In this document: in pieces, positions 27,201 to 58,551 of the stretch | Numbering within the stretch: the first letter of the stretch is position 1 | How the letters are laid out: each line of letters opens with the position of its first letter | Source: Raillietiella orientalis | Taxonomy: Eukaryota | DNA length: 64,000 nt | Direction: 5' to 3' | NCBI GenBank assembly: GCA_036172245.1 | Contig: JAYWIR010000001.1 | Location: 3,968,001-4,032,000, forward strand | Made by a program: the position numbers and the translations under genes | Notes under the pieces: generated by a model | Told to the model about the DNA's origin: nothing | Databases searched by the model: none | The model's input: only the letters and a program-made list of their open reading frames with translations

Positions 27201-30200
27201 GCGCATCTCCAGCGCATGACACCTTTTTTTTTTCTCTCTCTCTCTCTCTCCCCTCCTTTGGTTTCCGGAAGTATCTATGGTTACCGAGTCGTTCCTGTGG
27301 CAGTTTCATCCGATCGGATCATTGCGCGGTTTCCTGCTTCCTCGCGGCTGGGTTAACCGAGGACGGAATGAAGCTACGGAATGAGCAAAAATCCGAGTGA
27401 GACGAAAACACAAAGCATCCTGGACAACATAAGGACTGTTCCGTTTCACCTGTGCATTTCGCCTCTGCTTTTCATCATGGAGCTGCATCTACGGAGCCCA
27501 CTCTAAAGCGATGACGGGTGCTCGACGCAACGCTCACGTCTCACGGAAGGGATGATCAATATCAATCCTCAGTAAAAGTTTTTGCGAAACAGGCAGGGTC
27601 TGCTCTCACGCGAAGATGTTCGCGGTAGAAGAAGAAGAAGAAATGAAAAAAAAAAAGGAGACGGAAGACCTCAAGAAACAAAAGTGATTCAGAAGTTCGA
27701 TTGCGGTCATCTTATCTGGTTAACTCCGAGTCACGCTCTGTTTATACGGAAGAAGCTGACCGCACAGGCTCCGTTCTTTAGGGATGAGGCGAGGAAAGAT
27801 CATCCTTCCTCGCCTCGTTTCTTTGGAAGCGGGAAATAAGCACAAATCAATAAACGGAACATTGAGAGATGAGGGGGCAGGAATCAAACCTACAATCAGC
27901 TTCATCTGACTGATCTCCAAGGCCACAATTGAAGAAAGAGTCACACTTCAGTTTGCTGGATACACAGAAACTGCTGACTTTGCAGTGGAACTGGTCACAG
28001 CCGGGACCTGGAAGCAGGGAGGAAGTGGAGTCAAGACGTGGTTCAGCCAGTCCTTCTCCCACTTGCCATTCTTAATCTCGGTCCACACTGCACGGAATCC
28101 GGATCCCCCGGTTGACTTGTCGGCGGATATGAACCTGAAAGGCCAAGAGCAAGTTTTCGCCGTTGTCATCGCTTGGAAGGGAAGCTGCTTCTCCCCCTCT
28201 CCCCCCCCTTCTCTCTCGTAGATGGCGAACCCATCGCATGCAACGGAGAGGCAAAGCGGGCGGTTTCGCTCCCGCCCACCACCGACCCCGCGAACTCCCG
28301 AGAAGTTCGGGATGGAAATATTCCCGGAGCTGGAGCTCCCGAAGGCTCCTAGCTGAGGTGCTCGGCATCGTCCTGAGGCTCTTGAGGCGAGTGGGGCATC
28401 GCCGGCTCTTCCGCATTCTGTGAAGGTGTGGCCCTTTACCGGTCCCTACTGAGGAAGAGGTGGGGGGTGTAAGAGGGAGGCATCTGCTTCGAAAGAGCCG
28501 GCCGCCAGCAACAGATGTCCTGCTTCGATCCCTTCTCCCTTTCTTCCTGTTCTCCCGTTGGCTCCAAAGCAAGCTCAAGGAGCCTTTGAGTGGCGGGGAG
28601 AATTTAAGGAAGAGGTGGAGGACTTTTGCTTTTTCCCTTTCTCTGTTACCTTGCTAATCCTTAGAGAGGTTCTCGTAAGGATCTGGCGCCTGAGATTCCC
28701 TGCTACCTCAGAATGGGAGGCTTCTCTCTGTGTTTTAGATACTTAGAGGAACTCGAGATTTTCGTAGCTTGGGAAAGCGACGACAGTCTAAGGGTTCCGA
28801 GGGCAAATCGACCTCCAGAGAAGGATAGCTTTCCCTCCTTAGGGTCGGAGCTTCGACCAAGGTACCACCCCTCGGTCCGAATTCCCAGCGGAATTTCGCA
28901 GGCTCCCCTATCCCCCTTCCCGCTCTGTCGGATGGATCTAAGATTCCTTCTTCGCCTGTCCCTCGCCTCGAGGTCTCGGTTTCGTCTGTTGCAGGCCAAA
29001 GTCCCGCTGAATCTGCTGAAGAGGTGTCAATCCACTGAGACGAACCCGCATGGGTTAGTTGGGCCACGATCCCCTCAGACAAACCTCCCGCGCAAGCGAG
29101 ATTCCTGTGGTGCTGTCCCTTCAAAACACCCCCTACGGATATCTGGTCTCTCGGCCGAGCAGTACTGGGTCCTGAGATGCCGCAGCTTCCTGACCGTCAT
29201 GCACAGACAATGAACTCTTGTCTCCTGCGACGTCATAGTTCCAGTTTCCTGCCGCTCGATTGGGGTCCAGTGATTTCCTTGCTACGCTGGATCCGGTCCT
29301 TTTGCTGATCTTTACGAAGGGGCTGGTGCCTCGTCCTTCTCACCTCTATCCTCCTTTTGTCCTGCCCTTTCCTTTCTTTTATCCAGACCAATCACTTGAG
29401 GTAGAGGCGTCCAAAATTTTAGTCTTCGAAGGACCATCAGCGAGCAGAAGCAGCTGCCGCTTGCCGTTCCACATCCCCATTTTCTGCAGCAGCGGTCCAC
29501 TTGGGCCCAGCCCTCCTCCTTCACTCACGAATGCATTCGAATCTGGGACATGCTTCTAGCCCCTGTTCCTCATCTTGAGGAAATTTCGTTTTTCTGCGGG
29601 GAATAAGGGTTTTGAAGAAATGCGGAGGTAGAATAACTTTCCTCAGCTTCCACTGCCTTTCTTGAAACGCCCTGCTTTGCCCATCGTTGACAGAGGGGGA
29701 GAGGGAGGAAGAAGGGAGGAAAAGGAAGGGAAGAGGGGCATTCCTTCTCCCCCTTCTTCCTCCCTTTCTTCTTTCCACCCATCTTCCTCATTTACTCCCC
29801 CTTTCTTCCTTCCTTACTCCTCCCTCTTTCGCTGTTCGAGCTCTGAGCATTCTTCTGCCATTCTCCGTCCTCAGACTAAATCTGCAGGTCCCAACCTTCG
29901 GCGTTGCACAGCTGCAAAGGTTGGTTGGTCGTCCAGAGATTCGACTAGGAACCAGCTTCTCCGTGGGATGTTCTCGTCCAGACGCCTCGTCAAGTGAATG
30001 CCCAGGATGTTTGGGCCCCGGAAGGGGCCTCATCAACTTGCAGAGCCAAAGAATGAACCAGGAGCAGAAGGAAGAGGGTTGCGTCACATGAGGACAACCG
30101 TGCACTCTTGTCTTCTCCCAGACACCTGTCGGAATGAGTCTCTCTGTAGGACAGAGTAAGCGTTCCAGTAACGCCCAACTGGTCCAGAACATCTCTTTCT

Positions 30201-33200
30201 GACCACCTGCCTAACCTAAACCTCCCATCTCAAGGCACCGGCAACAGCCGTGCGGACCAATTTTTGGAACCTCGGCAAGACAGGCAACAACGAAGCTCTT
30301 CGAGCGCCCGAAACCTTCCGCGGAAGGCGCTCGGGACATCTCCAAGAACCTCCGGGATAGAGGGAAAATTTCGCCGCAAAGGTGGCGGTCTTGTTTGTCC
30401 GGTGGCTCCTGCAGCGCCCCCCGCAGGCAGAAGAGAGGGAGGGACGGCTCCGGTCGATCGAAACGAGGCGGCGGGCGAAAGAGGGGAACCCAGCGAGAAA
30501 CAACAGTTGCAGCAAGAGCAACAAGAAGCAAGCCTTGGCGATGATGGATCACGAGCGTCCAGGAAGGTGGACAGACGCTGCTGCTGCTTTACCGGTTCAG
30601 CCACGGAAAGCACGGAGGGCTCCTCCCTGCTTGCTTTTCCCTTCTCGCCACTCGGCTCTCCGAGGAACGAGGGCTGCGCGCGCGAGAGAGCATATGTGCT
30701 CGGGAAAAGAAAAGAGACAGAAAGGTCCAAGCGAGCGGGAGGGACCTCCGTCTGTTCCGATAGTGCCAAATTCTCGTCACGAGTTCCCATGAAAAATTCG
30801 CCCATGCGTGAGGAGCCTTCCGTGCTCGCGCATACAGGGGGCGCTTGGGATCGGTCCGCGCCTCTCTGGGAAGGACCAGTGGGCAAGAAGAGCTGCTTCC
30901 CTCGGTTTCAAGGCCCAGAAAAGCGAGACGCGCAGCCGATTCTTGAAGACTCAGGATCTCGAGGTCTCTCCCATCCTGTTCCCTTTCCCCAGGAATCTCC
31001 TCCTTCTCTCCCCTTTTCCATTCCCTGAAGCAAGGTAAAGACTCATGGCAGCTCCACTTACGAGATGCGGAGCGAGTTCGCCTGCGTTAGGATCTGCCGG
31101 TGCTCCTCTTTCAGCTTCTGCCCGCACAGCTCGATGGGCGTGTTCGAAGAGGTAGCGTAGATGCGCACGGCGGCGCTTGCACAGCCACGTTCTGGCGGAG
31201 GTGTAAAGAGAGCAAACAGGGAGGGATGGAGGCTCACCTTCCGGGTCCCCTTCCATGGAGAACCTGTCGAACACAAAGAGGATCCTGTTCGGGGGACGTA
31301 CCCGGATGAACCAGTTGCAGGTCTGAGCCACGGCTTCGTAGCGGTCCGGGTGGTTGGGGCTCGAGATGACGCCGCTCTCACCAGTCGTAATGTTGGCGCC
31401 GCAGTCTCCTAGGAGGGGGGGAGAAAAGGCACACCGTCAGCCCTCGCAGGGAACCTCCAGACTCTTCCGCTTTTTTCATTTTTTTTCTTTTCTTTTTCAT
31501 TACCGACGGCGGATTTCACAGACTGGAAGATGTAGCGAGCTCTGAATCCCCCGGACACACCTTGGCCGTCCGCACGCAGGGTGACTTTTAGCCCCTTGCT
31601 GCCTGGCCCGGATTCTATTGGGGCGGGTGCATACCTTCCACAGTATTTACCCATCATCAACTCGCTGCTGTCGTGGAGGTCGTGCAGCTCAACCCAGTCT
31701 TCGTCGCAGTCCTCGCTGGGTTAGCACGCGCAAGCGCATTGAAAGGGGGACGGGCGCAAACAGCACGTCTCACCCGTACGAGTTCTCCTTGGGGTGCAGG
31801 GTCGTCAGGTCAAACGCGTCGAAGACCAGCCGGACCGCTTCATTCTCCCCGGCCTGCGGAGAAAAATAGAGACGGGAAGCAGAGAGTCGGTGCGGATTTG
31901 CAGAGGGGGTGGCGGGGGGTCGGAGAGAGGAAGCGGAAAAGGAGCTAGGCTGCAGCCCCCATCGCTGCCGCCGCCACCGCTACCAGGACGCTCGCGTTCT
32001 TTTCGAATTGCGCGACACAAGCGATCAGCAGCGGACAGCGAGTGCGCGCGGTACCGGAGGTCAGCACCCTCAGTGCCTCAGCCCGACGCTCCGCCGAGAA
32101 GCAACATGCTAGGATGATGGAGATCCCTCGGAGTTCTCCTGTTTTTGCTGAATTCCTTCCGGTCTCTTTTTCTTTTGGTTCTCCAGGAGTGCTGAATAAT
32201 TGTCCGCCTCCTTACAGGGAGCTCACGAAGCTCTTTGACACCGCCCACACCACCCGAGGGTGCGTGGAACTCTTCAAGTTAAAGGGGGAATCCAGGGAGA
32301 CTGTTATCACCCTATAAATCCAGAAAGGGCTCTGGAGTAAGGAGTCGGCCATTCTCCCTCCTGGGAAGGAACTCTGAAGAGAACCCTCCAGCCTGGTTGT
32401 CTCCAAAGAAGGAAGGAAGCCTCTTCCTTGTTCTCTCAGAAAAGACTCCCTGGTTTGTGGGGCGGTTCCTCGTCTCTTCTCCAGGGGCACCAGCAAGGGA
32501 TGAATCGCTTCCTGTTTCCTCCTCTGGAGAGAATCCCCAAGGAACACTTCCAAATTTTCTCTGAAGGGTCGCTGCCGAAGGGATCGGAGCACTTGTTCAC
32601 ACTCTGGAGAGGTGCCAACCTGCTTCATGTCCCCATCTTCACAGTCAGAGGGATACCCTGAATAGAACCCACTCCTTGATTCCTGAAAGGGCCCCGGAGG
32701 GTGACCTTCAATCCTGGCCAGTCAGCAGAGGCATACGGCTTCCACCAGTGCCGCACCCGAAGCCCCGCAGATCAACGAGCGCCATCCTGCAAGGGGAACT
32801 CGAAACCCACCCATCCCCTATTTCTCGACATCGATCCTTCCCCGGGCAGCATTCGAATCCGCAACGCTGAATGCCGTGCGAGGACCGCAGTCATACTGTC
32901 ACCAACGCGGGCAGCTTCAAGACCCCCCGAAAGATATTCGCCAAAGTTGAATCTAACACAAGGCGAGTTGAGCGCTCGCGCATGTGAGAGCGTCCCTATT
33001 CTCGATCGCTGCCTCCGTCCTCCATCCGAGATCTTCTGGAAGACCCATCCGCTCCGTCGCCGAGCACGTTTCTTCCTTCGAGAAACTCCAGGGGTACGCC
33101 GACCAGGAGTCTTTTCCGCTCACGAGGACTTCTGGAGCTTCCGCGCAGGAAGGCATAAGTGCTTGCGGGCAAGAGATCGACAGAGATGAGGAATTTGAAA

Positions 33201-36200
33201 GCGGGTGCAAGAAGGTCGACCCTCGATTGCGAGGATTTCCTCTCAGGAGAACCACTCTTCTCCATCGCCCCTGTCGACTCTGCTTGCGCTTCGCCGCTGT
33301 GCGACGCAAGGTGCGCGGAAGCAGAAGTTTCCGGTGCCTGATGGTCATCCTATTCTTCCAGAGATCAGGACCCAAGTAGGGGCCGACCGCTACTCTTATC
33401 CTGCTGTGCATCCCTCCATTAGCGACGGGCGACACTGGCGTCGGTATGAGACTCATCCCCGGGTAGATGCACTTCCTTCCAGTGCGACCTTCCCTGCAAC
33501 CGCCTCAGTGCTTTCCTTTTTCGTTCGGAGTTGCCGATATCCTCGGAACCGATCCCAGAAGTCTAGGCCGTGGGTCAGCCTCGGCAGCTGTAAGCCAGAA
33601 TGACACGTTCTCCTTGGAAACGCCTGCATGAAATTCTGCTTCGTAGTGCCAACCTCCTCCCTCCTCCCCCAAGAAACGCAGACCACTCTTTTCTTTGCTG
33701 AGAGCCCTCTGCCGAGGGGATTCTGGGTGGACGTTGGATGCGCCCTTTTCTTTCCGGGACGGCATCCAGCTCGGAAGTCAATCGAAGCCTCTTTCGACAG
33801 ACTGAGGTCAGAAGTTTCTCCAGAGATTCGTCTCTGGTATTCTCCCTCCTGGAAGAGATGCATGCATCTTAGCAGTTTCCGAAGGAGCAAACTTTGCATG
33901 GAAATCTTCGTCTCATTTCGTGATTCTAGATCCAGAAGTACTACTGGATAATGAATACTCCATCACTCCCTCTGAGGCTTTTGTCCGCAACTCTGGTATT
34001 GCAGGAATTCTTGCTGAGGTTCCTGTGCTCTTCTCTAGTGCTTGGGTGTAGGTCTGAACGGGGAAGACTAGTCGTACCGACGGATTTTTTTCTCATCCTT
34101 TAAGAGATGTTCACAATTCGGTGCTCGGATGTGGCTGAGCCTTCACAAGAAGGCTTGTGGCCTCTTCTTAACGATGGAGGAGCAAATCTGTCAGTGAGGC
34201 CAGTCTTCCCCGTTCGGAGCAGGAGAGGCTCTTCTGCTCCTCCTCTTGCTTTCTGTATCCTTGAGCGCCTGCGTGGATGGATGAGCCTTCTAGCTTCTTG
34301 CATCGCAAAAGCGAAGACCCTCTCTTTCCTGATTCTCTAAAATTCCTTAGAGGTACAGAACGAGCTTTCTCCTAGCTGGTCGCTTTTTATCTGTGCGGGA
34401 ATCTGCGCTTCCAAACAGCTGACGTCGCTAGCCGCAGTTGTCTTGGAAATTCATGCCTTCTGTTTTCGAAGGTGCTGGTTAACTATTTTGCAAGTGCACG
34501 AGCTCTACAGGTGCCTCGGCTTGGTAACAGGAGGTGCCCTAAATGAGGGTCGAGATGCTGTTGAACCCAGAAGAGTTCGCGAGACAGGGAATGAACGTAA
34601 GCAGATGACTACAGAAGCGCATTCGGTGTATCGCGAAGAACCGAAGGACCTTTATGTAGCTTAGAGTGGATCGGGAGGAGATCTGAATTGAGCTATCGAG
34701 TGGCGATTCTTCCTGATGCCGCACACTCGATCGCAGCTCTCGCTTCTGCGGAGTGTGACAACACCGCTCGCCGGGCAACGCGCAGGATCTCTGCTAGCTT
34801 TTTCGGCATCCTTCTCGCGTTTCCTGCCAGCTGTTTCCTCCCACTGATCCGGCAGGAACGTTTCGATCTTCATCCCGACGTGAATGCGGAGATCCCTCGT
34901 TGTGCGTGCTCAGAAGGCCCGCGCTTGTTCGTTCCGCAAACCCTCAGGCTGAAGAGAAAGTCAGCGCCTCAATCGCCACCTTCCGTCGGATTGCTGGCTA
35001 CATTTGAACGCGGCCGGAGAGGTCGCCAGCACCCTCTTGACCGCATTTCCAAACCACGGCTTCCTCAAGCAGTGCGCTCATCTTTGCGTGAATGCTTGGC
35101 ATCCTACACGTTGAGGCGGCGGAGCGAACGACGGAGGGTGCGTGCCACGGGTCGTCGATCACTTACCAAGAACATGTAGACGCAGGTTGTGTTAGATGGG
35201 TAGTGGGATGGGTGTCTGGGGGAGTTGAACTCCCCCCTGAGCTGGCTCGAGCTACGGTAGGTAAAGTGGCAGTTTCCATCCGGCGCCTGCGTGCCGGGAA
35301 TTTGGTACTCTGAAGAGACAAGGACAAGCATATCGGTCTCTGAGGCGCCGCCTCTGCGGCGAAGATGGGTATGTCACCTGCGCCCCCCGGTTGTCGCCTC
35401 ACGCGAGCAAGAACCAACCTGTTTCGAACCGGTAATGGGCCTTGAACCCCTGGCCCTGTCTTTCGCCGCTGCTGAAGATCATCATGACTCGTGGTCCTTC
35501 TGTCATAAGAGGTGCGGGCAGCTCCTTCCCGCAGAACTCGATGTCGAACTTGTCGAAACCTTGGAAAGTCTCCTGTCCGTGCACGTAAATTTTGAGATAT
35601 CCGTCGGTGCACCTGGAAAGGGGCGACGAAGGGCGACTGAAAACGGTTTTCTCCGGGAGGGACAAGGGGGTGGGGAGGGGGGAGGAGGTTGCGGCGGTCG
35701 CATCGCCCCTGCCGGGACACCAAGCTGGAGGGAGAAAACGAAGGGGAAAAAAAGCATCCCACTTACTCTCCCTCTTTGTCTTCGCCGCCGGGAATGTCAA
35801 ACTTCTCGAATTCCAGGTAGACCTTTTCGAAGTGCTGGATGTCGTGCATCCCGTAGATGTAATACTTGCACACGATTTTGGGGATGTACGGGAAGGGGTA
35901 GTTGGGACTGTAGATCGTTCCGTTGGATTTCTCCTTGCTCAGGATCGTTTGATCGCACTCTGTTCCGCGCAGGTGAGTCCCCTCGTTTTTGGTGATGAAA
36001 TCTGGGGGAGAGATTTCGGAAGTTTGCCCCTTCCATGTCTCCGGCTATGACCGTCCTCTAGACCTAATTTGACGAAGCTCTCGCTGAATTCGAAAAGACC
36101 CGTGAACCCTCTGTTCTGCACGTCGGACACCCGCTTCAAGGAAGAAAAGGTGACGTAAAGCGTGTTGTCGCTGGAGAACACGACCACATTCCTCTGCTGA

Positions 36201-39200
36201 CCACAGTAGGTGTCTATGAGGGGGGCCGACTCGTCCAACCCGTCGAACATCTTCACCCGGTCGAAGGGGCAGCTGAAAAGGAGCGCGCCCCGGTGGAGGT
36301 CGACCGTCAGGGCAGCGAAGCAACCTTACTGCTGCCCTCCGGAAAAAACATCGAAGTCTCTGAACTCTATCCTTATCCTCTGTCCCTTTCGACCGATGAA
36401 CTTGTAAAAACACTTGATGTTTTTGGGGTAAACACCAGGGTAAGTGGGTGTCATCAGAGTTCCCCTTCTCTGCTGCTCGCTGTAGATGGTGTATCCACAC
36501 AGGGTGTTGGGCGAAAGGACACCGATGGTGTAGTTGCCTACATCGGAAGAGAGTCGATAGCGTTTGGCAACGAAACGTCTTGAGAAAGCCGAGGCAACAT
36601 GTTCCTTTAGGTGTTTTCACCTCCCCGTCCACTGCCCTATCTTTCAGAATCCACGCGGCTGCTCCGGACAGGGATTTTCTATGAAACGGGTGAAGGCGAG
36701 AGCGGTGTCCGAGAGAGGGCTCGTGGAAAGGAGGGAGGAGCAAGCTCAGAACCCGTCAGCGGGAAGACATCGGAACACGCGCGCAAGCATGTCCACCGTG
36801 CAGGACACTTTGTTTCCTTTGGGGAACCCGAAGAAGGACGCCAAAGAAGGTCTTCGCTGCGTGCGGAAGTGGACGCCGAAGTGGTCGTGAGCCTGATCGC
36901 TCCAGCTGCCCTGGGATTCAATTCAAGCGCGTGCAGATGCCGTTACCACTTTCTGGAGTTTTCATCAAAGCCAGAAGGGAAACGGATTTTCCGAACCCAC
37001 GCTCTTTTTTTTTTGTTTCCTTCAGTCTGGACTGTGGGAGGCAGATGGAGTTTTCGATCGACCCACGGAGATGCCGGAACCGAAAAACGGTTATTTTCTT
37101 CGGAGAGTGGTGGAGTGTCTTTCTCGTGGACTTCTCCATTCCTGTGTCCACATCGGGAGAAGAAGGAAACAGCTCCTGGGTCCATCCCAAGAGGATTGAT
37201 TCTTCCCCTTCCGGTGCTCCCATCGCCTTGTGGTCCTTTCCCACGTCTGGTGTAGGAAGGGGCGCGCGCCCACGACGAGCCCTTAAGATTTTGCCGCCCC
37301 TTCGCATACGCGTGCCGCATTGCGAGCAGAGGAGGGAGTCGTAGCGCTCCCGAGCGGACTCTAAGCCGCCGCGTTCCTCGAAACTCGTGCAGTTCTGGAG
37401 TCCTCCTGGTTAGGAAGGGAGTCCAGGGAGGGCATCAAATGGAGCGCCGTGCGAGCTGTGCGAGGGAGGAACTTTTCTTCCTTCCTCTCCCATGAAGGAT
37501 TCGGCACTCTTCGGAGAGCCGCTGGAGGCGAGGTTTCCACCTATCCTGGAGAGGAAGGGACTCCCGCCAACTCTGCCATGCCACGGGCACATTCCTTCGC
37601 AGCCACCAGTGCAAGCGCTCGTAGAGCGACGCCGCCTCTCGTGGGAAGTTCCCGTTCTGGGGTTGCTTCCCCAGTTCCTTCGCTCACGGGGATCGTCGGC
37701 CGACCCTCAGTTAGAACTGCGAAAGGGAAACCACCACTCACTTTCCAGGCACACAAGCGCTGTTAGGGTTGGGTGTCACTCGAGTCATCAGAAAGGGGAG
37801 GTCCCGTCTTTCCGCAATGACGATGATGATGATGCGAGTGACCTGTTCATGGAGGCTGTTGAGCAGCCGAACGAAAAGGCTTGCTGAGATCTTTGATGCC
37901 GATCTTACGATGGGAGATATAGGAAAATTGTCCAGAACAGAGCAAAGAAACCTGCGAAAGCAGCTGCACAAAGGATCCATCCTCCCATGGTGGCCTTTGG
38001 CTAGATCAGGCATGCCCATAAGGCTGAGGAGCTGCCGAGATCGACTAAAAGTGACCCTCGTCAACGTGCAACCCGCCAGTTTCGTCTCGACAGGCTTCCA
38101 TCTGAGGCCCTTAATCCATGCTAGGGACCCTCGGACAGATGGTAACAAAGTTGAGTGTTGGTGCTGCGTGAGGAAAACAATTCTTTCAGGATGCAGATGC
38201 TGGCAATATTTTGATTCCAACTTCCTCAACAAAATCAAACTGCACCAATAGAATGTGAAAGACACCCCAGTAATGGAGGGGGAAAAATGAAAAAGTGAAA
38301 ACAAAAGCCTAAGGATGAGGGAGACTTCGGGGACAGGCAGTCGACCCAGAGGACCAATAGTGCCGGAGCACCGAAACTATTCGTCATCGCCGTCCATCAG
38401 TGGAAAGTTTTCGAAAAAAGATGGCTTCGGAAGGTTTCAGAAAGAGCCGCTTTCTCTTCCAAGTTTCTTGTGAGCCTGAATTCTGGAGTCAGGAAACTGG
38501 AGAAGACTGCTACAAAAGAACCGGCAACTGCAGTGACATCCTTGCAACTTCCTCTCTGCTTTTCAACCAAGCCGAAGAAACAGTCCATTCATTGAACTCT
38601 TGTTTAGATCCTCTCCTTAGACATACGCATTGTTTCAGGTGTGCAAGAGTTGCACTTTGGTGCCAATTCCTACCTTTCTCTGAGGTGGGGTTGAGAGGGA
38701 AGAAGGAAACGAAACGCATATCGGGCTCAAGGGTAAGAGTGATAAGAGGAACTGAGTACTGACGTGAGGTAACGCTGCAGAGAGTGACCTGCACCTTGTT
38801 TGGAAGAAAAGAGCACACGAGAAGATCAGCCGATGAGGCAGTGGTATCAGTGGAATCATTTTGCAGTGTCTTTTGCAGTGCCCATCTACCTTGAAACATC
38901 AGAGATGCCAAGGTTCCGTAATGAATCAGTCCAGTCAATCCGTAAAGATGGAATGGATGCTGCCAATCCTCATTTGCACTGCAGAACGGAAAAGAAACAA
39001 GATGGATCACGAATGAGGAACCTCCTCTAAGCACCCCCCTCTTGAATCTTCTTTTGCTTTGATGCATTTGCAGGCAACAACGAATTTGTTCCCCGCCGCA
39101 TCAATGCCTATCGATGCAGGTGCTCATGGTAACGAGGCCATCGAGTCTGCTTCCGTGTATGAGGTGTGGAAACTGATTCTTTGGGATTGCCTGATGCGTC

Positions 39201-48200: not shown

Positions 48201-51200
48201 GGGAAAACGAGCGGGCGCAGGGAACGTTTTTCCACAAGGAACAGGCGACACCGCGAACTCACTTACTTGCATTCAGGAAGCGGAAGTATCCCTGGAACAC
48301 TTCGGAGGTTGTTGAGTTCATCTGGGAGTTGTACACGATGGCTGCGTGCCTATGCAGGCTAATCCTTCTTCGTGGCGGGATGGTGCCGCAGTAGCGACCT
48401 CCGAAAGGGGAGTAGATTAGGTCGAAGGTCGAGTTGATCTTCTGTATTTCAAAATACAGATCGATGTACTCGAGGTTGCACCTGAACACCCAAGGAGACA
48501 CCAGTCAGGTATGAATGATGAGAGAAAAGTCACGCAGCATGGGCCGTTCGCGGAGGAAGGTCGGGTCCGCAGCCACAGAAGCGCACCATCCCGCGATAAG
48601 GCAGTAAAAAACCTGGAGCGCACACAGTTTCCTCGAGGGTGCTTTCTCTGCTCTGAAGATGCAGCAGAGGCTGCATCTGCAGCAAGCGACGCATGATCTG
48701 GATTCAACAAAGCATGAATTACATTAAATGGGTCACAAGGCACATCCGCAAGCCCGGAAACTTTAGAGGAGGGACAACGTTTGATCCCAACGACTCAGCT
48801 TGCTTGCTCTTTCTTTTTTTTTCGAACAAGTTTCTCCCTCTGGAAAAAAAAAAGGACCAGTGGTCGCTCGCGATCCCTGACTTTCGGAGTTGAGTTTCCT
48901 CACTTTCTCGTTCTACTTCCGGTACCGAGTGCAAGCGTTGCAGGATGCCCCAGCTTCCCTGGACTTTGCATCCGCGGTCCGTGAGAGAGGGACTCCGTGC
49001 TCCCTTGTGCGTTTTTCTTCCGCTACGAGCTCGCGAGGTGATCCACCAACGGGCGCGCGAATGGCAAAGGCCGTTTCCTCCCGTTCGCTACTCGAATCGC
49101 GACTTTGGAGGAAGAGGAGGGAGGGAGGAGGAGGAAAGGAGGAGGAATATTCGCTGCTCGGCACTGGTGAGGGCGAAACGCCTCTCTGGAGGGTGCATTG
49201 GCTTCTGCCCTTTGACGGTGCCACAATGATCGGTTTCCTCAATGCCTCCTCTCTTGATGCTCTACAAGAAGAAGTGGGATGAGGTATAAAACTGCAGGTC
49301 ATTGGGAACACACAGAGAGGATTTCCCCCAAATCATTCTTATTCTGCTCGTTGCTGAGATGAAAAGAGTCTGAACCAAGACGGCTCCACAAAGTTGCATA
49401 GCAAAAGAGAACTTGAGCCCAAGAAAGTGTTCTTGGGCTCCTGCTCTCTTTCTCTCGTTCGAAATAAAAGCTTCTAGAGGAACACGTTTAAGTGAGCAGA
49501 GCATGTGATTTTTCCAAAGCAGAGCTCACTTTAATGAACTTGGTCCAGAAGCTGGGACTTTCAGAAAGGAGTGGGTGGAAAGGAGGAGGAATAGTAGAGG
49601 AGGAGAAAAGCAGAAAGGTTCCTAGGAAACTACCCGGAAGCGGTTCCGCATCGCCTATGAAGTGATCAACATGTTTTCCATAAAGTTCTTGAGAAAGATG
49701 TTAATTTTATCCTGCAAAGGAACATCATCAAGCCGGTAACAGCATGATGGCTACAACAACCATGACAGTAAATCAGCAACACCCTGCAGCCCATGGTAAC
49801 TGCCTTCTGGAGAAATATGCTCACTGAAAGAGAATGCATGCGCTTGACCGTAATTGTCTACAGACAGAAGGAATAGCAATGTCCCCTGAAGGCATCTGTG
49901 AGGGCGAAGATAAGATGTGAGGAATTCGAGGAAAAGCATTGGCGGCAAATTAACACGAGGTTGGCAATCCCAGCCAAAGCCTCCTGGTACGGAGGTCGAA
50001 GAGCTTTTCTTGACTGGGCCCTCGTGGGCGGATTTCAGTCTTTAGAAGTAAAGATGCTATTAAAAATGGAATCTCTCTCTTGGGCAAAACAGGGTAGATC
50101 CTTACTTAAACATTTAGACGGAGTCCTATGCAAGAAGCTGAGAGAAAACCTACTGGTAGGACTTGGCTCTGCGAGAAGAGGTCCGACCTTTCCAGCATCA
50201 TTCAATGCTTTTGTGACAGATTCAAACAAAGGGATGGAGGACTGGTTAATGAACTGTCAGACAGCCTTCAGGAGCAAGTGGAGAATGTGTGGTGGGCAAG
50301 GCGATACGGAAAAGGTTCTGAACCCAAGAGTTTCAGGAGCGGATCCTCCCAGAGCGGCACTTTGGCGCTTTACTCATGTTTGCTCCTCGAAAGATGCTGG
50401 GAACTTCCTCGGAGAAGAGCAAAGAAGCTTCCCTGGGAAACAGAGTGGTGCTGACGGGGGGTGCATCCAGCCGGTCAGGGTAAGAAACGTTTCCTTGCTT
50501 CGTCCTGTGTGGGCGTGCAAGAATGCTTCCCCGCTTTCCCAGAAGATGCCACTATTCGCGCAGATTTGCGGCGATGCTCCGTCCGTCGCCATAGGGAAAC
50601 AATTCTCCAGCATCGCGTGGGTTCTTCGCAATGGGAAGGTCAAGGGCTTCTGATCGCATGTTCAAGGCAACGGACCCTCCTTGCTGGTTTGCCTGATGAC
50701 GTGAGCATTTCCCGCATGCGTGGGTGTAACCGTCCCGGCGTAAGCCGTTTGACAGACGACGTCGCACGAAACTGGGAAGCTGACGCTCCGTGTGAACGCG
50801 CAAGATCCGAGTCTCCTGCATGGATGGATACCCTCCTCCCCCAGTTTTGGCAGTTCCGAAAGCTCAGGGCTCCCTCTGTCGGATACCCCTCCCTGCAAGG
50901 CCGGAGTCGCCGTGCCGTGCCGCACGGATTTTTTCTGAGGATTTCGGCTCCGCACTGCTGCTCTCCCTCCCCCCCTCCCATCCCGGGATCTTCCAATAGG
51001 AACCAGGTCCGCAGTAATTTTTTTTCTTTTTCTTTCTTCCTTCGCGCGGGGAATGGAGGTGGCATTCTCTTTTCTTTCCTTTCCTTTCGAATCCTCCATG
51101 GCTTAGAGACGCAGCTTACGAGTTATTACATTTTAAGAACTGCATCTAGGCTCAGCTGATAAGCAATCTTTCGGCAAAGGAGGGCCAATTGATGAACGCT

Positions 51201-54200: not shown

Positions 54201-57200
54201 TCCCTTCCTAGCGCCTGGCCACCACCCGGAGCCACGAAGCTCGCGCCTCCGCGATGTCGCGCGGCGCAGATAGCTGGCACTTCACCCACCCTGGGGGTCC
54301 TTGCCTCGGGTGATGCAGCTGACTAGAGGAGAGTGTTCCACTTGGCAGGCGATTGCCCTTGCAATCCTGACCTACTCGCTCTGGAGAAATTTCGATTCCC
54401 TTTTGTCCTCATGTCATGTTAAAAGCATGGGGGAGAGTGGCTGCGACAGAGACCTGCGGACTCGACTCCCCTTTGCTTTTTCGCCCACACTGATGGTTTC
54501 CGCACCGTGCTTCTGCATCCTTTCGTCACTCTTCCTGTTTCGCCACTCTTGAATCTTGGGAAATTTTTTGGAAGATCCTACGGTGTCCGCCGCTGCTGCT
54601 TCTCTTTTTCTCCATCTCCTGAACGCGCTTTCTTCTCTCCGTCCCTTCCTTCACCTCCATCTCTTGCATAGAAGAAGGATTGGGTAGGAGGATTCTACGG
54701 TCTTTTCCCAGCTGCATCACCTTTTGACCAGCACTGAGCCTCGAGCTCTGCTTTGAGGTCGCCTCAGGGCTGGTTCCTCCGCCAGCGCGTGCGGATAACT
54801 CTCTGAGTAGCGGAGTGCCCGTGAGAATCGCAGCAACGCGATGAAATCTGCTGCCATCCGAAAGACTGGGATCACCGACTGCATGTGCGGAGTCGAGAAG
54901 GGGCCGTTCGTCCCCGAGATCTGAAGATTGCTCAAGACGAGAACGGCAGAAGCATCCCAGCACGAGCGTCTTCTGTCCGGCTCGGAAAGAGCCCACAAAT
55001 CAACCCCTCAGCAGCTTCCGTCTCCAGGATGGTTGGACGAACTGCTCCCATGCAGCCTCCGAAATCTCCTCGTGGTCACGAGTGGCTCAATCTTCAAAAC
55101 TCGCTCTGGACGGCAGCCTGTGGCAAGCAAGCGAAACTCAGACACGCGAGGGGAGGCGGAAAGCGCTACCCTGTGCGTGTGTGTTTCCTTTCCTGCGCAG
55201 CTCCCTACTCAAGAGCGCGCCGCATGTGCAAGGCTGGTGACTCGGCTCTAGCGACACTGTCGACTAATCGATGGACAGAAGTGGACCGCTGATGGTGCTC
55301 GGATGAGACGTGCTTGCACAAGTCCTTCCTACAAAAATCTCCTCTTCTCTTTAAGGAAGTTTGCTTTCCAGATCACCACGCGGTCGGAAGAATGACAGGA
55401 GGAGAGGAGGAGGAGAAAGGGAGGAGGAAGAGGTGATTCTTTGAGGATTTGAGGAGCGTTCGTGCGCCTCCTGCACCGCTATCGCAAATTTCCCTTTGCC
55501 CTTTCCTGGAATGCTTGCCGCTCCGCAAACAGTCGGTTGCCATCAGCTGATCGTCTTCGAGGAGCAGCTGGTGACCTTGTCCTGGGTGCGAAAAGAGACA
55601 GAGGTCCGGAGGGGCAAGGGTTTCCGTGAAGCTTGCCGAAGAAAAAGCTGGAGCTGGGGAGCGGCGCACGCTGCCAAAGATGCGGGCAGAGATGATTTTC
55701 CCTCGGCAACGCCGTTCTCGCGTTTCCGGAGCTACCCGTCCTGCACGTTCGAAATGTCGGCTGGCTACGAGCGACAAGAACAAGAGGCGGGGAAAGGGGA
55801 GTGAGGTGAGAAGGAGAAAGACGAAAGGATTCTGCGGTGACCTTTTCTAGTCCTAAAAGAGAACCCTCCACGATTCATTCTTCGGGAAGGCCCCGGCAGA
55901 TGGATCCGACCGCTTCGTGCGGGGAATACGCCCCGAAGTTATCCCTCAGTTTGCTGTGCCGTTTTGCACCTCCGGAGGTGGCTGCCATCTCCAAGATGAC
56001 AGAGCTCAGGGGGTCAAGTGGCGACTTGTTTCATTTCGGCATCACACGACCTCAGGGCCATTTTCCAGCGCCTTGATAGAGAAAGGGGCTCACCACCAGT
56101 TCAGCAGGGCAGGAGGACAGCTTGCCTCTCCTGTGCAAATAAAAATGCGCTAGGACGCTCCCGAGGCACCTGCACGCTCGAAGAGTTGTAGACGGAACTC
56201 TTCTTCGACAGGGTCGTTCCGAACGGCTTGGGAGTGGAGAAGACAGGAAGAAGGAGGAGTCATGGAGAGATGGGGAAGGAGAGAGGAGCGGGAGGGAAGC
56301 ATTGGTGCTGGGAGGAAAGCCGAAGAGTTGTGAACGGAAAGCAGATGCGGTTGTCAGATGCGAAGCCCAGAAATCTTCACACTGGACAGAACGAGGCTGG
56401 GAAGGAGCGGAAGTGACGTAGATCTTTTCTCGCTTTTATCCCAAAGACACATCTTCTCGGACGCCAAATGAACCAACGTACGTAGTCCTTGGTCCCCGCT
56501 ACCTTAGCTTTCTTTCCTTCGAGGACTGACCTTGCCTCCTCTCGCGGAGACCGCCTGAACGGGGAGAAGCGCTTTTTTTCTCTTGCCCGTTGTCTGACGT
56601 GAGCAAAGTCGGGGAAGAAGGGGAAAAGTCTTCCCGTTCCCTCCGAGGGGAAGTTTCGTGCCACTCCCTACCCCCTTTTCTTGCTGTCGCTTCCTCTTCC
56701 ACCTCCCCTTTCGCTCCCAGACGGAAGGAACGCCGCTGCTTACTCTGGGGGAAACTTCCTCATCTGCAGGGAGGTGAACACGACCTCGACGTTCTCTCCG
56801 GGCTGACCCACGAAGAAATAGATGCACTGAAGTGTCGTCCCGTCGTGGTTCTCGATCTCAGGAGAGGTGAACGTCCCGTTCCTCAGCGTGCTGGAGCTTC
56901 GGAAGATCCTGTCGCAGCCTGAGAAGGGGTGAGCATGAGGACGACGGAAGTTTTGCGCCAAGAAATAAAGGAGGAGAGGGAAAGGAAGAAGAATCAAAGA
57001 GGAGGAATGAAGGTGTAAAGGAGGAAGAAGAAAAAAAGAAGGAAGAGGAGAAGGAGGAGGAGGAAGAAGAAGAAGAGGAATGGAAGAAGGAGGAGAGGAA
57101 AGGAGGAAGAAAAGCAAAGGATCAAAAAAGAGTGATGATAGAGGAAGAAGGTGGAAGAAAAGAAGACGAGGATAAGGACGAAGAGGACGAAGGAACAAAA

Positions 57201-58551
57201 CAGGAAGAACGAAAGAGGAGGTGGATGGGAGAAAGGAGGATTCTCTCCTGCTCCCTCCCTTACCGTTGCTGTTCTGTAGGAAGTGGGAGATGCCGTCCGT
57301 CAGATTGTCCCGGAGTCTGAAGGATTTCCATTCTCCTGGAAAAAAGAGAATGAGAGAGCTGAGTGGGCAAAAAAAAGAGAGGGAAGGGGCAGAAGGACGA
57401 ATGGAATCCGCCCACCTTGCTTTGACTCTCACCCTGAGCAAAGCAGCAGGAGGAGAGACAAAGGGCAGGGTCTCCTGTTTCAGAGCTCCGTCTCTCAAAA
57501 GAACTCGCGCTCGCGGGAGGGACGAAAGGTGGGGAAAGGAGAGAAGGGGAAGGGGCCGGAGGAAGGGAGCAGAACCCTTCTGCTGCGGAAGGAACGCGCG
57601 AGAGAGCATTCGCGTGCTCTTGCAAGGATGGGAGAGGCTTTCCCTGGCCGGAGGAGGAGCCGGCTGGCGGCGGATCTGATACCGTTCCTCCAAATATCGA
57701 TCGCCAGCAAAAGGAATCTTTTTCCTGCTCCTTCTCCCCTCACCACACGGAGGAAGGAGGCGAGAAACGCAACCTCGGGGCGGAGCCAATGGGTTGGCCC
57801 GAACTTCCCTCCTCCTCTTAGCCGCATGCTTACCGAGGCGCCACTCCCGTGAACCGGGGGGGCTCTCACTAGGGAGAGCTGGCGAGGAGGGCAAGTGGTG
57901 ATGGTGGCTACCGGCAAGGAGAAAGGAAAGGCACATGCAAGCCCATGTTTCCGTATTTCCAGTTGCAGTCCTCAGAAACCTCCGAGGCCACCAGCCTAAC
58001 GGGAGCGGAAGGGTGTTGGCTCGTGGGGACACCGGGTGCACGACCAAACTTCGGTCCAAGAGGTAAAGGGGAGTTCAGGAAACTCCCTTCCCGTCCCCTT
58101 TCTTCCTTTTCGGAGCCCCGGAGGTAGCCCGGAAACGCGCCGTGAGCGTGCGCGGCGAAGATCGCCACCGGCAGACCTTCGGCATCCCTGGGGACGCCGC
58201 GAGGCGAAAAGCAGAAGGTCTGGCGGTGGACGAGGGAGGAAGTCGGGAGGGGGCCGCCTCTCGCCTCGTTCGCGCAAGGCGGCGGCCCCGGCCCCACTCA
58301 GTGTCATGTGGTTGCTTGGGACGCTCCCCGCGCATGGGGTGATGGGAAGGAACGGAAGTGGATGGGTGGATGAGTGAGTGAAGATTACCTGCTCTTTCCT
58401 CAGGGCTTGTGTTTGGGTCATGCCGGCGAAGGAGGCTGACCCTTCCTGTCTACGCGCGCACACGGTTTTTACCGTAAAGAATGAGGAAAGTGAAAAATAC
58501 CAACAGGATGACCAGCGAGAAGCCGACGGCCACACACATCATGATCTTCAT
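18004..58551 (-). CDS. lev-10: Multi-exon gene: LEV-10-like type I membrane protein (5 CUB + LDLa + TM + short cytoplasmic tail); 813 aa without, or 867 aa with, the optional 162-nt exon; the true N-terminus is uncertain
   Basis: 15-16 exons joined by GT/GC-AG introns with all phases compatible. 15 exons total 2442 nt = 814 codons including TGA. The domain order matches what is known for C. elegans LEV-10. The symbol is assigned by architecture plus the EAT-18-like 5' exon, not by a database search. Confidence 0.8.
20530..22900 (+). mobile_element. Degenerate LINE fossil (zinc-knuckle-like ORF1 remnant, then endonuclease-like segment 21590-21960)
   Basis: RCYWCATCG..CP remnant near 20655; 21590-21830 matches 11660-11950. 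Boundaries are approximate. Confidence 0.35.
24170..24760 (-). mobile_element. Degenerate MULE/Mutator transposase fragment
   Basis: SPPSVFYLAVFRVQHP...K....Y resembles the P..F.QL..IH segment after the first catalytic Asp. Confidence 0.3.
25690..26500 (+). mobile_element. Degenerate RTE-clade LINE reverse transcriptase fragment
   Basis: Ordered remnants GIYP...WK, LPESQYAG (cf. LPESQCGF), EKCL.E, AF.EVS and IAPTL (cf. QGCVLAPTLF). Confidence 0.55.
27894..28007 (-). CDS. lev-10: Exon: LDL-receptor class A module (GPGCDQFHCKVSSFCVSSKLKCDSFFNCGLGDQSDEADC)
   Basis: Six cysteines and the D.SDE motif; cttccAG| acceptor, T|GTAGGT donor. Confidence 0.93.
28067..28134 (-). CDS. lev-10: Exon: CUB5 end (FISADKSTGGSGFRAVWTEIKN)
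   Basis: F.S......GF.A.W motif; ctttcAG| acceptor; non-canonical donor G|GCAAGT. Confidence 0.88.
31062..31191 (-). CDS. lev-10: Exon: CUB5 middle (ERGCASAAVRIYATSSNTPIELCGQKLKEEHRQILTQANSLRIS)
   Basis: C....V.I and LCG motifs; ccgccAG| acceptor, TC|GTAAGT donor. Confidence 0.9.
31238..31408 (-). CDS. lev-10: Exon: CUB5 start (GDCGANITTGESGVISSPNHPDRYEAVAQTCNWFIRVRPPNRILFVFDRFSMEGDPE)
   Basis: CG...SG.I.SPN.P..Y...C.W.I motif; ctcctAG| acceptor, G|GTGAG donor. Confidence 0.92.
31504..31715 (-). CDS. lev-10: Exon: CUB4 end (EDCDEDWVELHD...MGKYCGRYAP...GFRARYIFQSVKSAV)
   Basis: C..D.VE, GKYCG and GF.A.Y motifs; donor G|GTAATG. Confidence 0.92.
31774..31853 (-). CDS. lev-10: Exon: CUB4 middle (AGENEAVRLVFDAFDLTTLHPKENSYG)
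   Basis: V.L.F..F.L CUB strand; tccgcAG| acceptor, GG|GTGAG donor. Confidence 0.88.
32230..32915 (-). mobile_element. tRNA-derived SINE, copy 3 (intronic)
   Basis: Plus-strand motifs atcaccctataaatccagaaagg, ttccaccagtgccgcacccgaagcc and cccgggcagcattcgaatccgc (reverse B-box). Confidence 0.7.
35167..35309 (-). CDS. lev-10: Exon: CUB4 start (EYQIPGTQAPDGNCHFTYRSSSQLRGEFNSPRHPSHYPSNTTCVYMFL)
   Basis: G.F.SP.HP..YP.N..C.Y motif; tcttcAG| acceptor, |GTAAGT donor. Confidence 0.92.
35419..35612 (-). CDS. lev-10: Exon: CUB3 C-half (CTDGYLKIYVHG...EFCGKELP...GFKAHYRFET)
   Basis: FCG and GF.A.Y CUB motifs; ctttccAG| acceptor, G|GTTGG donor. Confidence 0.92.
35767..36001 (-). CDS. lev-10: Exon: CUB3 N-half (DFITKNEGTHLRGTECDQTILSKEKSNGTIYSPNYPFPYIPKIVCKYYIYG...VYLEFEKFDIPGGEDKEG)
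   Basis: G.I.SPNYP motif; cccccAG| acceptor, GA|GTAAGT donor. Confidence 0.92.
36064..36272 (-). CDS. lev-10: Exon: CUB2 C-half (CPFDRVKMFDGLDESAPLIDTYCGQQRN...RGFTGLFEFSESFVKL)
   Basis: C..D.V..FDG and YCG motifs; cttttcAG| acceptor; weak donor G|GTCTAG required by phase. Confidence 0.92.
36330..36537 (-). CDS. lev-10: Exon: CUB2 N-half (SNYTIGVLSPNTLCGYTIYSEQQRRGTLMTPTYPGVYPKNIKCFYKFIGRKGQRIRIEFRDFDVFSGGQ)
   Basis: P.YP..YP...C.Y CUB motif; tgtAG| acceptor, CA|GTAAGG donor. The ORF track does not show this frame. Confidence 0.92.
37860..40900 (-). mobile_element. Degenerate L1/Tx1-like LINE ORF2 fossil in intron
   Basis: Ordered remnants KRKEGSVRPLSAL (RPISLL-like), LRRGSKQ (RG.RQ-like) and LMGMPDL (GLGLPDL-like). 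The 5' boundary is uncertain. Confidence 0.45.
41200..41760 (-). mobile_element. Degenerate MULE transposase fragment
   Basis: VFGCFYG (GC.FH-like) followed by P..W..H and an RTNN-like remnant. Confidence 0.3.
43230..43845 (-). mobile_element. tRNA-derived SINE, copy 4 (intronic)
   Basis: Motifs atcaccctatgaatccaggaagg, ggcttccaccagtgccgcacccgaagcc and gggattctaaccc (degenerate reverse B-box). Confidence 0.7.
44700..46150 (-). mobile_element. Degenerate MULE/Mutator transposase pseudogene
   Basis: Ordered remnants GT...PSAFQ..LVH, FP.....G..C.FY, DVARVF....FLSFIDYF and SRT (RTNN-like), matching MULE DDE domain order. Confidence 0.55.
48267..48481 (-). CDS. lev-10: Exon: CUB1 C-half (CNLEYIDLY...GGRYCGTIPP...FQGYFRFLNA)
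   Basis: CUB G.YCG motif; ttcAG| acceptor, A|GTAAGT donor; phase 2 in, phase 1 out. Confidence 0.9.
49900..50850 (+). mobile_element. 3' half of a degenerate L1/Tx1-like ORF2
   Basis: HWRQINTRL....SWYGGR (W..I..RL..LS..GR-like), GGFQSL....SLSW, and AWVLRNG plus Cys remnants (zf-RVT-like). Confidence 0.45.
51758..51796. repeat. Compound (TCG)3(TCA)9(TCG) microsatellite
   Basis: Read directly. Confidence 0.9.
52060..52640 (-). mobile_element. tRNA-derived SINE, copy 5 (intronic)
   Basis: Motifs cctacgaatccaggaagg, cccgaagggaacctcttcc and cccgggcgggattcgaacccgc (reverse of GGTTCGAATCC). Confidence 0.7.
56744..56918 (-). CDS. lev-10: Exon: CUB1 N-half (GCDRIFRSSSTLRNGTFTSPEIENHDGTTLQCIYFFVGQPGENVEVVFTSLQMRKFPPE)
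   Basis: CUB motifs C..G.F.SP...C.Y; acceptor ttctcAG|, donor GA|GTAAG. Confidence 0.9.
56960..57240. repeat. GA-rich (GGA/GAA) low-complexity tract
   Basis: Nearly pure purine on the plus strand. Confidence 0.85.
57834..57995 (-). CDS. Candidate 162-nt phase-1/phase-1 exon (GWWPRRFLRTATGNTETWACMCLSFLLAGSHHHHLPSSPALPSESPPGSREWRLG); alternative acceptor at 57907
   Basis: Acceptor CCCTTCCGCTCCCGTTAG|, strong donor G|GTAAGC, length divisible by 3, in frame with CUB1. Confidence 0.45.
58450..58551 (-). CDS. eat-18: EAT-18-like small transmembrane ORF / 5'-most coding exon (MKIMMCVAVGFSLVILLVFFTFLILY|GKNRVRA*); internal donor G|GTAAAA after 58473
   Basis: ATG at 58551 with an in-frame TGA about 40 nt upstream; 26-residue hydrophobic run. 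Close match to the EAT-18 TM core as I recall it (MKIMMLVAVGIALLILFIFFGFL). Lies immediately 5' of the lev-10-like CUB exons. Confidence 0.65.
   Translation of the reverse strand: MKIMMCVAVGFSLVILLVFFTFLILYGKNRVRA

Follow-up and report, generated by a model that had tools for sequence, protein, structure and literature searches.

A short hydrophobic reading frame upstream of the CUB exons

The 64,000-nucleotide stretch of DNA analysed here (hereafter the window) raises the question of what is encoded by a short, strongly hydrophobic open reading frame (ORF) located at the 5' end of a gene for a protein with five CUB domains: an EAT-18-like micro-protein, as proposed in the initial annotation, or a piece of that gene. 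The main value of the analysis is a correction: the ORF is most likely an ordinary signal-peptide exon, with no separate micro-protein. With high confidence, it can be assigned to the coding part of exon 1, carrying the secretion signal, of a 15-exon gene of the LEV10 family.

Translation of the letters shows that the annotated 33-codon ORF, MKIMMCVAVGFSLVILLVFFTFLILYGKNRVRA followed by a TAG stop, is real and lies on the minus strand (58551-58450), the strand having been left unnamed in the initial annotation; on translation, the plus strand of 58450-58551 holds no comparable ORF. This ORF is more than a product of chance. The mean hydropathy of its residues 3-26 is 2.73, the top value of the 814 stretches on both strands of the window that begin with ATG and stay open for 26 codons, while the second independent stretch has a value of 1.81 and a single stretch out of 814 attains at least 2.5. 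Also, its best 19-residue hydropathy window (2.94) ranks first among the 536 ATG-to-stop ORFs of 25-200 aa. Around the start codon, position -3 is occupied by an A, and a TGA is found in frame 13 codons upstream.

The ORF contains a GT donor (TAC G|GTAAAA), with exon 1 ending at 58473 and the donor starting from 58472, in phase 1. The acceptor of exon 2 at 56919/56918 (cccttctcAG|GC TGC GAC) has a long pyrimidine tract and is likewise in phase 1; the two phases agree, and the start of exon 2 coincides exactly with the first cysteine of CUB domain 1. Because codon 27 straddles the GT donor, the tail of the ORF, KNRVRA plus the stop, is intron sequence. The ORF had been described as directly upstream of the five-CUB gene: the gene is indeed real, downstream and on the same strand, but its first CUB exon lies 1,554 bases further on (56918). 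The most easily seen CUB exons are about 22 kb from the ORF, at 36.5 kb.

According to this model, exon 1 would provide the initiator methionine and a 24-residue hydrophobic stretch, which would serve as the signal sequence for the endoplasmic reticulum (ER). Splicing would join base 58473 to base 56918, G and GC forming a Gly codon, and translation would proceed directly to the cysteine that opens CUB domain 1, while the seven extra codons and the stop would be the opening bases of intron 1, mimicking a 33-codon micro-gene. Judging from the splice signals and the phase match, this predicted 58473|56918 junction is probably the one used in vivo. The signal is probably cleaved, possibly near G27, and the gene product, a type I membrane protein 813 residues long, would belong to the protostome LEV10 family.

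The region around the ORF (56.7-59.7 kb) is CT/GA-rich, of low complexity, and generates long spurious ORFs. Such surroundings would suit a chance hydrophobic frame in a promoter region, the true first exon being located elsewhere, either before 58551 or within intron 1. This reading is very unlikely, as the ORF ranks 1/814 and 1/536 in the hydropathy scans, which revealed no rival hydrophobic ATG-started stretch upstream of exon 2 in the window, and as ATG, donor and phase are all consistent. Intron 1 itself (58472-56919) has no ATG-started hydrophobic ORF, i.e. no eat-18-like exon. Since the orthologues P0005 and P0006 have an acidic linker of 30-35 residues between the signal and CUB 1, a small extra phase-1/phase-1 exon within intron 1 may nevertheless be conceived.

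Database searches for relatives of the ORF used its 46-aa stop-to-stop form as a query and have weak power for 33 residues. Among proteins of 25-81 aa, no candidate had three 5-residue words in common with this form, and none of the 28 candidates of 82-2000 aa matched it at E ≤ 10. The top score of the ESM Atlas search was 0.77, and a local short-BLAST of the mini-ORF itself against the 213 other proteins collected here gave a lowest E-value of 0.69. Signal peptides are not conserved in sequence, and for this reason exon 1 is beyond confirmation by homology.

The 15-exon gene model and its product

The complete gene model, a by-product of the analysis, describes an arthropod LEV10-family gene whose relatives are named 'cubilin-like' or 'tolloid-like' in public records. 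It spans 40.5 kb of the minus strand, from 58551 to 18004. Once spliced, its exons (Table 1) total 2,442 bases, corresponding to 813 codons plus the stop, in a frame devoid of internal stops; GT-AG borders delimit 13 of the 14 introns, the exception being GC-AG. Concerning the rest of the window, none of the 113 ORFs of at least 125 aa outside the CUB exons matched a Pfam family at E ≤ 0.001.

Table 1. Positions of the predicted exons and of the read-through into intron 1 in the window.
Feature	Position	Strand	Description
Exon 1, coding part	58473..58551	-	ATG at 58551; 26 codons + 1 base, MKIMMCVAVGFSLVILLVFFTFLILY + G; putative N-terminal hydrophobic signal
Intron 1, start	58450..58472	-	Read-through (G)KNRVRA + TAG (58452-58450); outside the spliced CDS
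Exon 2	56744..56918	-	CUB domain 1, first half
Exon 3	48267..48481	-	CUB domain 1, second half; ...SPFGGRYCG... motif common to orthologues
Exon 4	36330..36537	-	CUB domain 2, first half
Exon 5	36064..36272	-	CUB domain 2, second half
Exon 6	35767..36001	-	CUB domain 3, first half
Exon 7	35419..35612	-	CUB domain 3, second half
Exon 8	35167..35309	-	CUB domain 4, start
Exon 9	31774..31853	-	CUB domain 4, middle
Exon 10	31504..31715	-	CUB domain 4, end
Exon 11	31238..31408	-	CUB domain 5, start
Exon 12	31062..31191	-	CUB domain 5, middle
Exon 13	28067..28134	-	CUB domain 5, end; followed by a 59-base intron with GC donor (G|GCAAGT)
Exon 14	27894..28007	-	LDL-receptor class A domain
Exon 15	18004..18212	-	Membrane span, HRKRKRR basic stop-transfer stretch, cytoplasmic tail ending -MESV, TGA at 18006-18004

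Read from its N-terminus, the 813-aa model shows a hydrophobic signal, then five CUB domains, an LDL-receptor class A (LDLa) domain and a C-terminal span; the last residues of its tail, -ESV, are PDZ-ligand-like. Single-ORF Pfam scans found CUB halves in seven window ORFs and LDLa in one, the remaining domain pieces being located by tblastn, and the domain count combines both sources. By hydropathy, the predicted protein has two hydrophobic segments only, residues 1 to ~33 and ~749-777, which gives the type I single-pass layout with an N-terminal signal and one C-terminal span; removing exon 1 leaves a protein without a signal. As a further by-product, a C-terminal S/T-x-V ending was found to be kept across the family, from arthropods to molluscs, which fits a synaptic scaffolding role.

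The model is collinear with its arthropod orthologues, with 45-51% identity across nearly the entire length. The termite protein P0009 displays 51% identity to residues 14-813, and P0005, P0006 and P0007 display 49-50% identity from residue 28, the first one encoded wholly by exon 2, to residues 793-813. P0005 and P0006 possess five CUB stretches and an LDLa domain each. In P0012, P0041, P0009, P0017 and P0036, the hydrophobic N-terminal stretch stops 1-7 residues short of the first CUB cysteine.

This layout is shared with the signal-peptide first exon of type I membrane proteins, which likewise brings an initiator Met, a basic residue (here K2), a hydrophobic core and a phase-1 end, and is joined to the exon of the first extracellular domain. 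Unlike in a usual cleaved signal peptide, the core encoded in the window is long (24 residues) and lacks a clear polar c-region ahead of the first CUB cysteine. Exon 1 might accordingly be used with the stretch left uncleaved, as an N-terminal signal anchor holding the protein in the membrane at both ends, and LEV-10, SOL-1 and Neto are described with an intracellular N terminus in one paper (PMC9546428). We consider such an anchor unlikely: a review describes LEV-10 as type 1 (PMC9083331), the orientation of LEV-10 is described as the reverse of that of EAT-18 (PMC7173930), the N-termini of the orthologues are ordinary and signal-like and are followed by a C-terminal span, and a small residue (Gly) directly precedes the cysteine. 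A signal that is probably cleaved is thus the preferred reading of exon 1.

Placement in the LEV10 family

A profile built from five arthropod orthologues retrieved 7,282 proteins at E ≤ 0.001, of which the best 150 were listed and the names of 30 of these were checked. Two of the 30 named clusters correspond to the oyster XP_011443281 and Lingula XP_013404900.1 proteins, both of which appear under LEV10 in Orvis et al. 2022 (accession list in supplement sheet 6; PMC9282427), and four of the 30 are from nematodes. C. elegans LEV-10 (NP_001021691.1) is not among the 30 named clusters of the best 150; the nearest rhabditids seen there are Pristionchus mayeri and a Panagrolaimus cluster, the Pristionchus protein P0036 showing 31% identity to the model over 830 aligned positions.

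In a quick maximum-likelihood (ML) tree of 34 rows, which left out named SOL-1 and Neto sequences, the model falls inside the pancrustacean clade with an SH-aLRT of 99, and this clade sits within an ecdysozoan group that takes in the nematodes. The family is single-copy in protostomes and its tree tracks the species tree. Both the profile and this tree without named SOL-1 and Neto sequences thus group the model with published LEV10 proteins over other CUB proteins. Since the profile retrieves the oyster and Lingula LEV10 proteins as well as nematode members, two points of the initial annotation hold: the gene next to the ORF is LEV-10-like, with its five CUB domains, LDLa domain and C-terminal span, and the genome does not look like that of a nematode. 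The genome is arthropod-like.

The composition of the protein agrees with this placement. A review (PMC9083331) presents LEV-10 as a type I protein that carries five CUB domains and a single LDLa domain, and both the type I layout and this set of domains are found in the window protein. Neto, SOL-1 and SOL-2, which are treated as families related to LEV10 (PMC9282427), are also single-pass proteins with extracellular CUB domains, with LDLa in Neto and SOL-2; by their published descriptions, Neto combines LDLa with two CUB domains and SOL-1 carries four CUB domains, vs. five plus LDLa in the window protein. As for function, the clustering of levamisole-sensitive acetylcholine receptors at synapses is known for C. 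elegans LEV-10 only, according to the review (PMC9083331). By analogy, the window protein might organise synaptic receptors as C. elegans LEV-10 does. Nicotinic receptors are insecticide targets, and the window has no bearing on whether arthropod LEV10 proteins organise them.

Comparison with EAT-18

In nematodes, EAT-18 serves the EAT-2 receptor as an obligate auxiliary subunit, and the ORF resembles it in its small size, its single membrane span and its location at a LEV-10-family locus. In C. elegans, eat-18 (Y105E8A.7c/d) starts from a separate first exon, which is located within intron 1 of lev-10 and splices to exon 2 of lev-10 in a frame other than that of lev-10; the protein has 71 or 78 aa, its C-terminal part is extracellular, and its N-terminus is M-R-S-L-E-R, as encoded by the cloning primers given in the Methods (PMC7173930).

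These features differ from those of the ORF in several respects. Instead of occupying its own exon in intron 1 and being spliced in a different frame, the ORF is located upstream of every CUB exon and is in frame with the CUB protein. Its 33 codons compare with 71-78 residues in EAT-18, and in place of an extracellular C-terminal part it has seven post-span residues, which are encoded by the intron. The initial annotation proposed a match to a putative EAT-18 core at about 16 of 23 residues; from published primers and descriptions, the N-terminus is M-R-S-L-E-R in EAT-18 vs. MKIMM in the ORF. Also, the ORF has two residues before the span and seven after it, with one and three basic residues, respectively, so that by the positive-inside rule a free peptide would favour the opposite of the N-in/C-out orientation reported for EAT-18.

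An independent, EAT-18-like single-pass micro-protein would imply an unspliced or alternatively processed transcript, with two products made at the locus from the same promoter. The ORF is real, starts with an ATG, is strongly hydrophobic and lies at the 5' end of a LEV10-family gene; the C. elegans lev-10 locus does encode EAT-18 (PMC7173930), and retention of intron 1 would yield exactly the 33-residue peptide. Even so, a micro-protein of this kind is extremely improbable, given that the tail starts precisely at a GT donor in phase with the next exon, that the exon, frame, length and N-terminus of eat-18 are different, that the charge count would favour the opposite of the orientation reported for EAT-18, and that no resembling protein was found, in searches that are weak for 33 residues.

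The EAT-18-like identity is not supported, in view of the donor phase, which fits exon 2, the in-frame join and the different gene structure of eat-18: the ORF is predicted to splice in frame to CUB domain 1 and to supply the signal of the CUB protein. The proposal of a conserved two-product locus regulating nicotinic acetylcholine receptors (nAChR) is not borne out either, for the position, frame, length and N-terminus of the eat-18 exon differ. Finally, the initial annotation had warned that the ORF could be mislabelled as a signal peptide, which turns out to be its best-supported reading. Where a short hydrophobic ORF runs only a few codons beyond a GT donor and precedes a gene for a secreted or membrane protein, a signal-peptide exon should be the first reading considered.

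A possible second small product

There is a very slim chance that the arthropod LEV10 locus, like its nematode counterpart, also makes a small single-pass product; if so, the EAT-18-like 'nested auxiliary subunit' arrangement would reach beyond nematodes. One conceivable source may be a transcript that retains intron 1, with the 33-residue peptide translated from 58551, and another may be a further hydrophobic mini-exon with an ATG start, located in intron 3. The latter has its ATG at 37988, in the context gccaccATGg, and 26 codons, MGGWILCAAAFAGFFALFWTIFLYLP; a GTAAGA donor comes after 37909. Its frame is mismatched with the next CUB exon, at 36537; a join to 36578 would keep the frame. When its ORF was compared by short-BLAST with the 213 other proteins collected here, the lowest E-value was 0.66. 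By position, this intron 3 mini-exon fits the EAT-18 arrangement better than the retention of intron 1 does.

Identification of the open reading frame

The 33-codon open reading frame (ORF) of the initial annotation is a real frame with the coordinates given there, and belongs to the minus strand, the plus-strand reading of the same interval being unremarkable. Its translation is MKIMMCVAVGFSLVILLVFFTFLILYGKNRVRA, followed by a TAG stop. With a mean hydropathy of 2.73, it heads the 814 ATG-started stretches of 26 open codons found on both strands of the window, the independent runner-up reaching 1.81 and a single stretch attaining at least 2.5. It also holds the best 19-residue hydropathy window among the 536 ATG-to-stop ORFs of 25-200 aa. 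Since it ranks first in both scans, it is not a chance frame. As to start context, position -3 is an A, and the frame is closed by a TGA 13 codons before the ATG.

Between 17 and 47 bases upstream of this ATG are a TGACG motif in doubled form (TGACGTGACGTG) and a CACGTG palindrome, which may, judging from their sequence, be promoter-proximal elements. CT/GA-rich low-complexity tracts are dense around exon 1 and within intron 1, and give rise to long spurious ORFs, none of which has a Pfam match in this region.

Positions of the features discussed, in window coordinates
Feature	Position	Strand	Remark
33-codon ORF	58551-58450	minus	
Exon 1, coding part	58473-58551	minus	
Intron 1	from 58472	minus	
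Exon 2	56744-56918	minus	CUB domain 1, first half
Long intron	48482-56743	minus	8.3 kb
Long intron	36538-48266	minus	11.7 kb
Long intron	18213-27893	minus	9.7 kb
Exon 13-14 intron	28008-28066	minus	59 bases
Last codons (-MESV)	18007-18018	minus	
Second hydrophobic mini-ORF	37905-38000	minus	ATG at 37988; lies in CUB-gene intron 3
Doubled TGACG motif	58598-58587	minus	
CACGTG palindrome	58573-58568	minus	
CT/GA-rich tracts	56740-59700	both	
Spurious ORF	56743-58074	minus	444 aa
Spurious ORF	58643-59560		306 aa

Structure of the CUB gene

Pfam scans covered 150 ORFs on the minus strand from 22 to 40 kb and located CUB half-domains in seven of them and an LDLa domain in one. A single CUB exon, used as query of a large protein collection, retrieved five proteins with E <= 0.001 out of 301 candidates, all of them arthropod "cubilin-like" proteins (shrimp, with 68% identity, mite, prawn, Daphnia and springtail). 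These are built alike: a signal at the N-terminus precedes five CUB domains and one LDLa, and a short tail follows the C-terminal membrane span. When these homologues were compared with the window by tblastn, the minus-strand matches formed a collinear series between 56916 and 18010 that left uncovered no more than the N-terminal 80-93 residues of the homologues. The start of the gene is therefore far closer to the ORF than the CUB cluster at 36 kb implies.

A donor splits codon 27 of the ORF (CTT TAC G/GTAAAA), and the acceptor of the first CUB exon (cccttctcAG/GC TGC GAC) follows a very long pyrimidine tract. The one base 5' of the donor and the two bases 3' of the acceptor form a Gly codon, so that the frame is continuous from MKIMM...LILY through this Gly to the first cysteine of CUB domain 1. 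The remaining junctions were set in the same manner, with the homologues as guide, resulting in 15 exons totalling 2,442 bases (813 codons and a stop) without internal stops. Of the 14 introns, 13 have GT-AG ends and the remaining one has GC-AG ends. The model is 45-51% identical to the arthropod proteins over near full length, and several alignments with orthologues begin at residue 28, the first one wholly encoded by exon 2.

Only two hydrophobic segments occur in the model (residues 1 to ~33 and ~749-777), hence the ORF provides the signal sequence otherwise missing from the CUB protein. Orthologues are laid out alike, the hydrophobic N-terminal stretch stopping 1-7 residues ahead of the first CUB cysteine in P0012, P0041, P0009 (termite), P0017 and P0036 (Pristionchus). 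Very probably, the ORF represents the exon encoding the signal peptide in an ordinary gene of the LEV10 family, extended by seven codons of intron sequence; its tail, KNRVRA and the stop, would be the first bases of intron 1, read through.

As for the gene as a whole, it spans 40.5 kb vs. 2.4 kb of coding sequence, because of its three long introns. The intron between exons 13 and 14 keeps the frame only with a GC donor (G/GCAAGT), a nearby alternative GT at 28062 putting the phase wrong. Scanning 113 long ORFs across the window revealed no further gene recognisable by Pfam.

Comparison with EAT-18

The ORF had been proposed to encode an EAT-18-like micro-protein. C. elegans EAT-18, considered here through its published description and the N-terminus encoded by its cloning primers (M-R-S-L-E-R), has an intracellular N-terminus and an extracellular C-terminus, and the first exon of eat-18, located in lev-10 intron 1, is spliced out of frame to lev-10 exon 2 (PMC7173930). 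Whereas this exon is nested in lev-10 and uses its own frame, the ORF lies upstream of all CUB exons and joins the first of them in frame. EAT-18 counts 71 or 78 residues (PMC7173930), while the ORF has two residues before and seven after the membrane span and begins with MKIMM. Protein searches found no relatives of the ORF, which weighs little for such a short and hydrophobic query. Differing in position, frame, span flanks and N-terminus, i.e. on each structural point, the ORF lends the EAT-18 proposal no support.

The nematode eat-18 arrangement is resembled more by the mini-ORF of intron 3, which ranks second in hydropathy among the independent ATG stretches of the window. In the context gccaccATGg, it runs for 26 hydrophobic codons, MGGWILCAAAFAGFFALFWTIFLYLPS, then TAA, and a GTAAGA donor starts directly after these codons, at 37908. 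Its phase (a 2-base partial codon) is mismatched with the next CUB exon (36537), the sole fitting acceptor being a weak one at 36578. Exons 4-6 are open for ~190 codons in this out-of-frame reading (counted by hand), and in this are unlike the short tail of EAT-18 type. The surroundings of the mini-ORF showed no coding neighbour. It may be a chance stretch or an alternative first exon; something more interesting, e.g. a separate small product, would be very unlikely.

Placement in the LEV10 family

A protostome-specific LEV10 family was described by Orvis et al. 2022 (PMC9282427), with accessions for oyster, Pomacea, Lingula, Capitella, Limulus, Drosophila, honeybee and C. elegans (supplement file 1, sheet 6). 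LEV-10 is presented as a type 1 protein with five CUB domains and one LDLa (review PMC9083331), the same layout as in the model; an intracellular N terminus is stated in PMC9546428, at odds with PMC9083331 and PMC7173930.

Searched against 1.84 billion representatives, a profile of the five arthropod proteins matched 7,282 with E <= 0.001, including 484 with E <= 1e-30. Among the best 150 of these 7,282, single-stretch full-length matches (~800-1,000 residues) were mixed with very long multi-CUB proteins (10-25 matched stretches). Names were looked up for 30 of the 150, five of them without organism name. Four were nematodes (Trichinella, Soboliphyme, Pristionchus and a Panagrolaimus cluster), and the others included insects, a spider, a mite, Artemia, a tardigrade, a priapulid and a horsehair worm, as well as an annelid, a nemertean, bivalves, a rotifer and flatworms. 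Two correspond to LEV10 proteins of Orvis et al. (PMC9282427): the P0035 cluster contains the oyster XP_011443281, and P0136 is the Lingula XP_013404900.1. C. elegans LEV-10 was absent among these 30 names.

In a quick ML tree comprising 34 rows, with SH-aLRT support, the topology agrees with the species tree. The window's protein falls within a pancrustacean clade (SH-aLRT 99), followed outward by chelicerates, the tardigrade and then nematodes. The lophotrochozoan LEV10 proteins fall outside these groups, and six unnamed shorter CUB proteins form a separate long branch. The profile matches (including the two published accessions), the tree position and the domain layout bear out the suggestion that the gene is LEV-10-like: it is an arthropod member of the LEV10 family, in agreement with already published knowledge. 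The suspicion that the genome is unlike that of a rhabditid nematode was also justified, the genome being pancrustacean-like.

Public records name family members cubilin, cubilin-like, tolloid-like protein 1/2 or dorsal-ventral patterning tolloid-like (P0009/P0159, P0011/P0197-P0201, P0018/P0215 and P0035/P0177-P0180), and none of the 30 clusters checked bears the name LEV-10.

Concerning the C-terminus, the model ends in -MESV, and the orthologous endings, from insects through to molluscs, are -DSV, -ESV, -TVV or -SIV (compared in P0004, P0005, P0007, P0009, P0025, P0027, P0035, P0041 and P0042). This conserved S/T-x-V ending resembles a class I PDZ ligand, which would fit a synaptic scaffold role.
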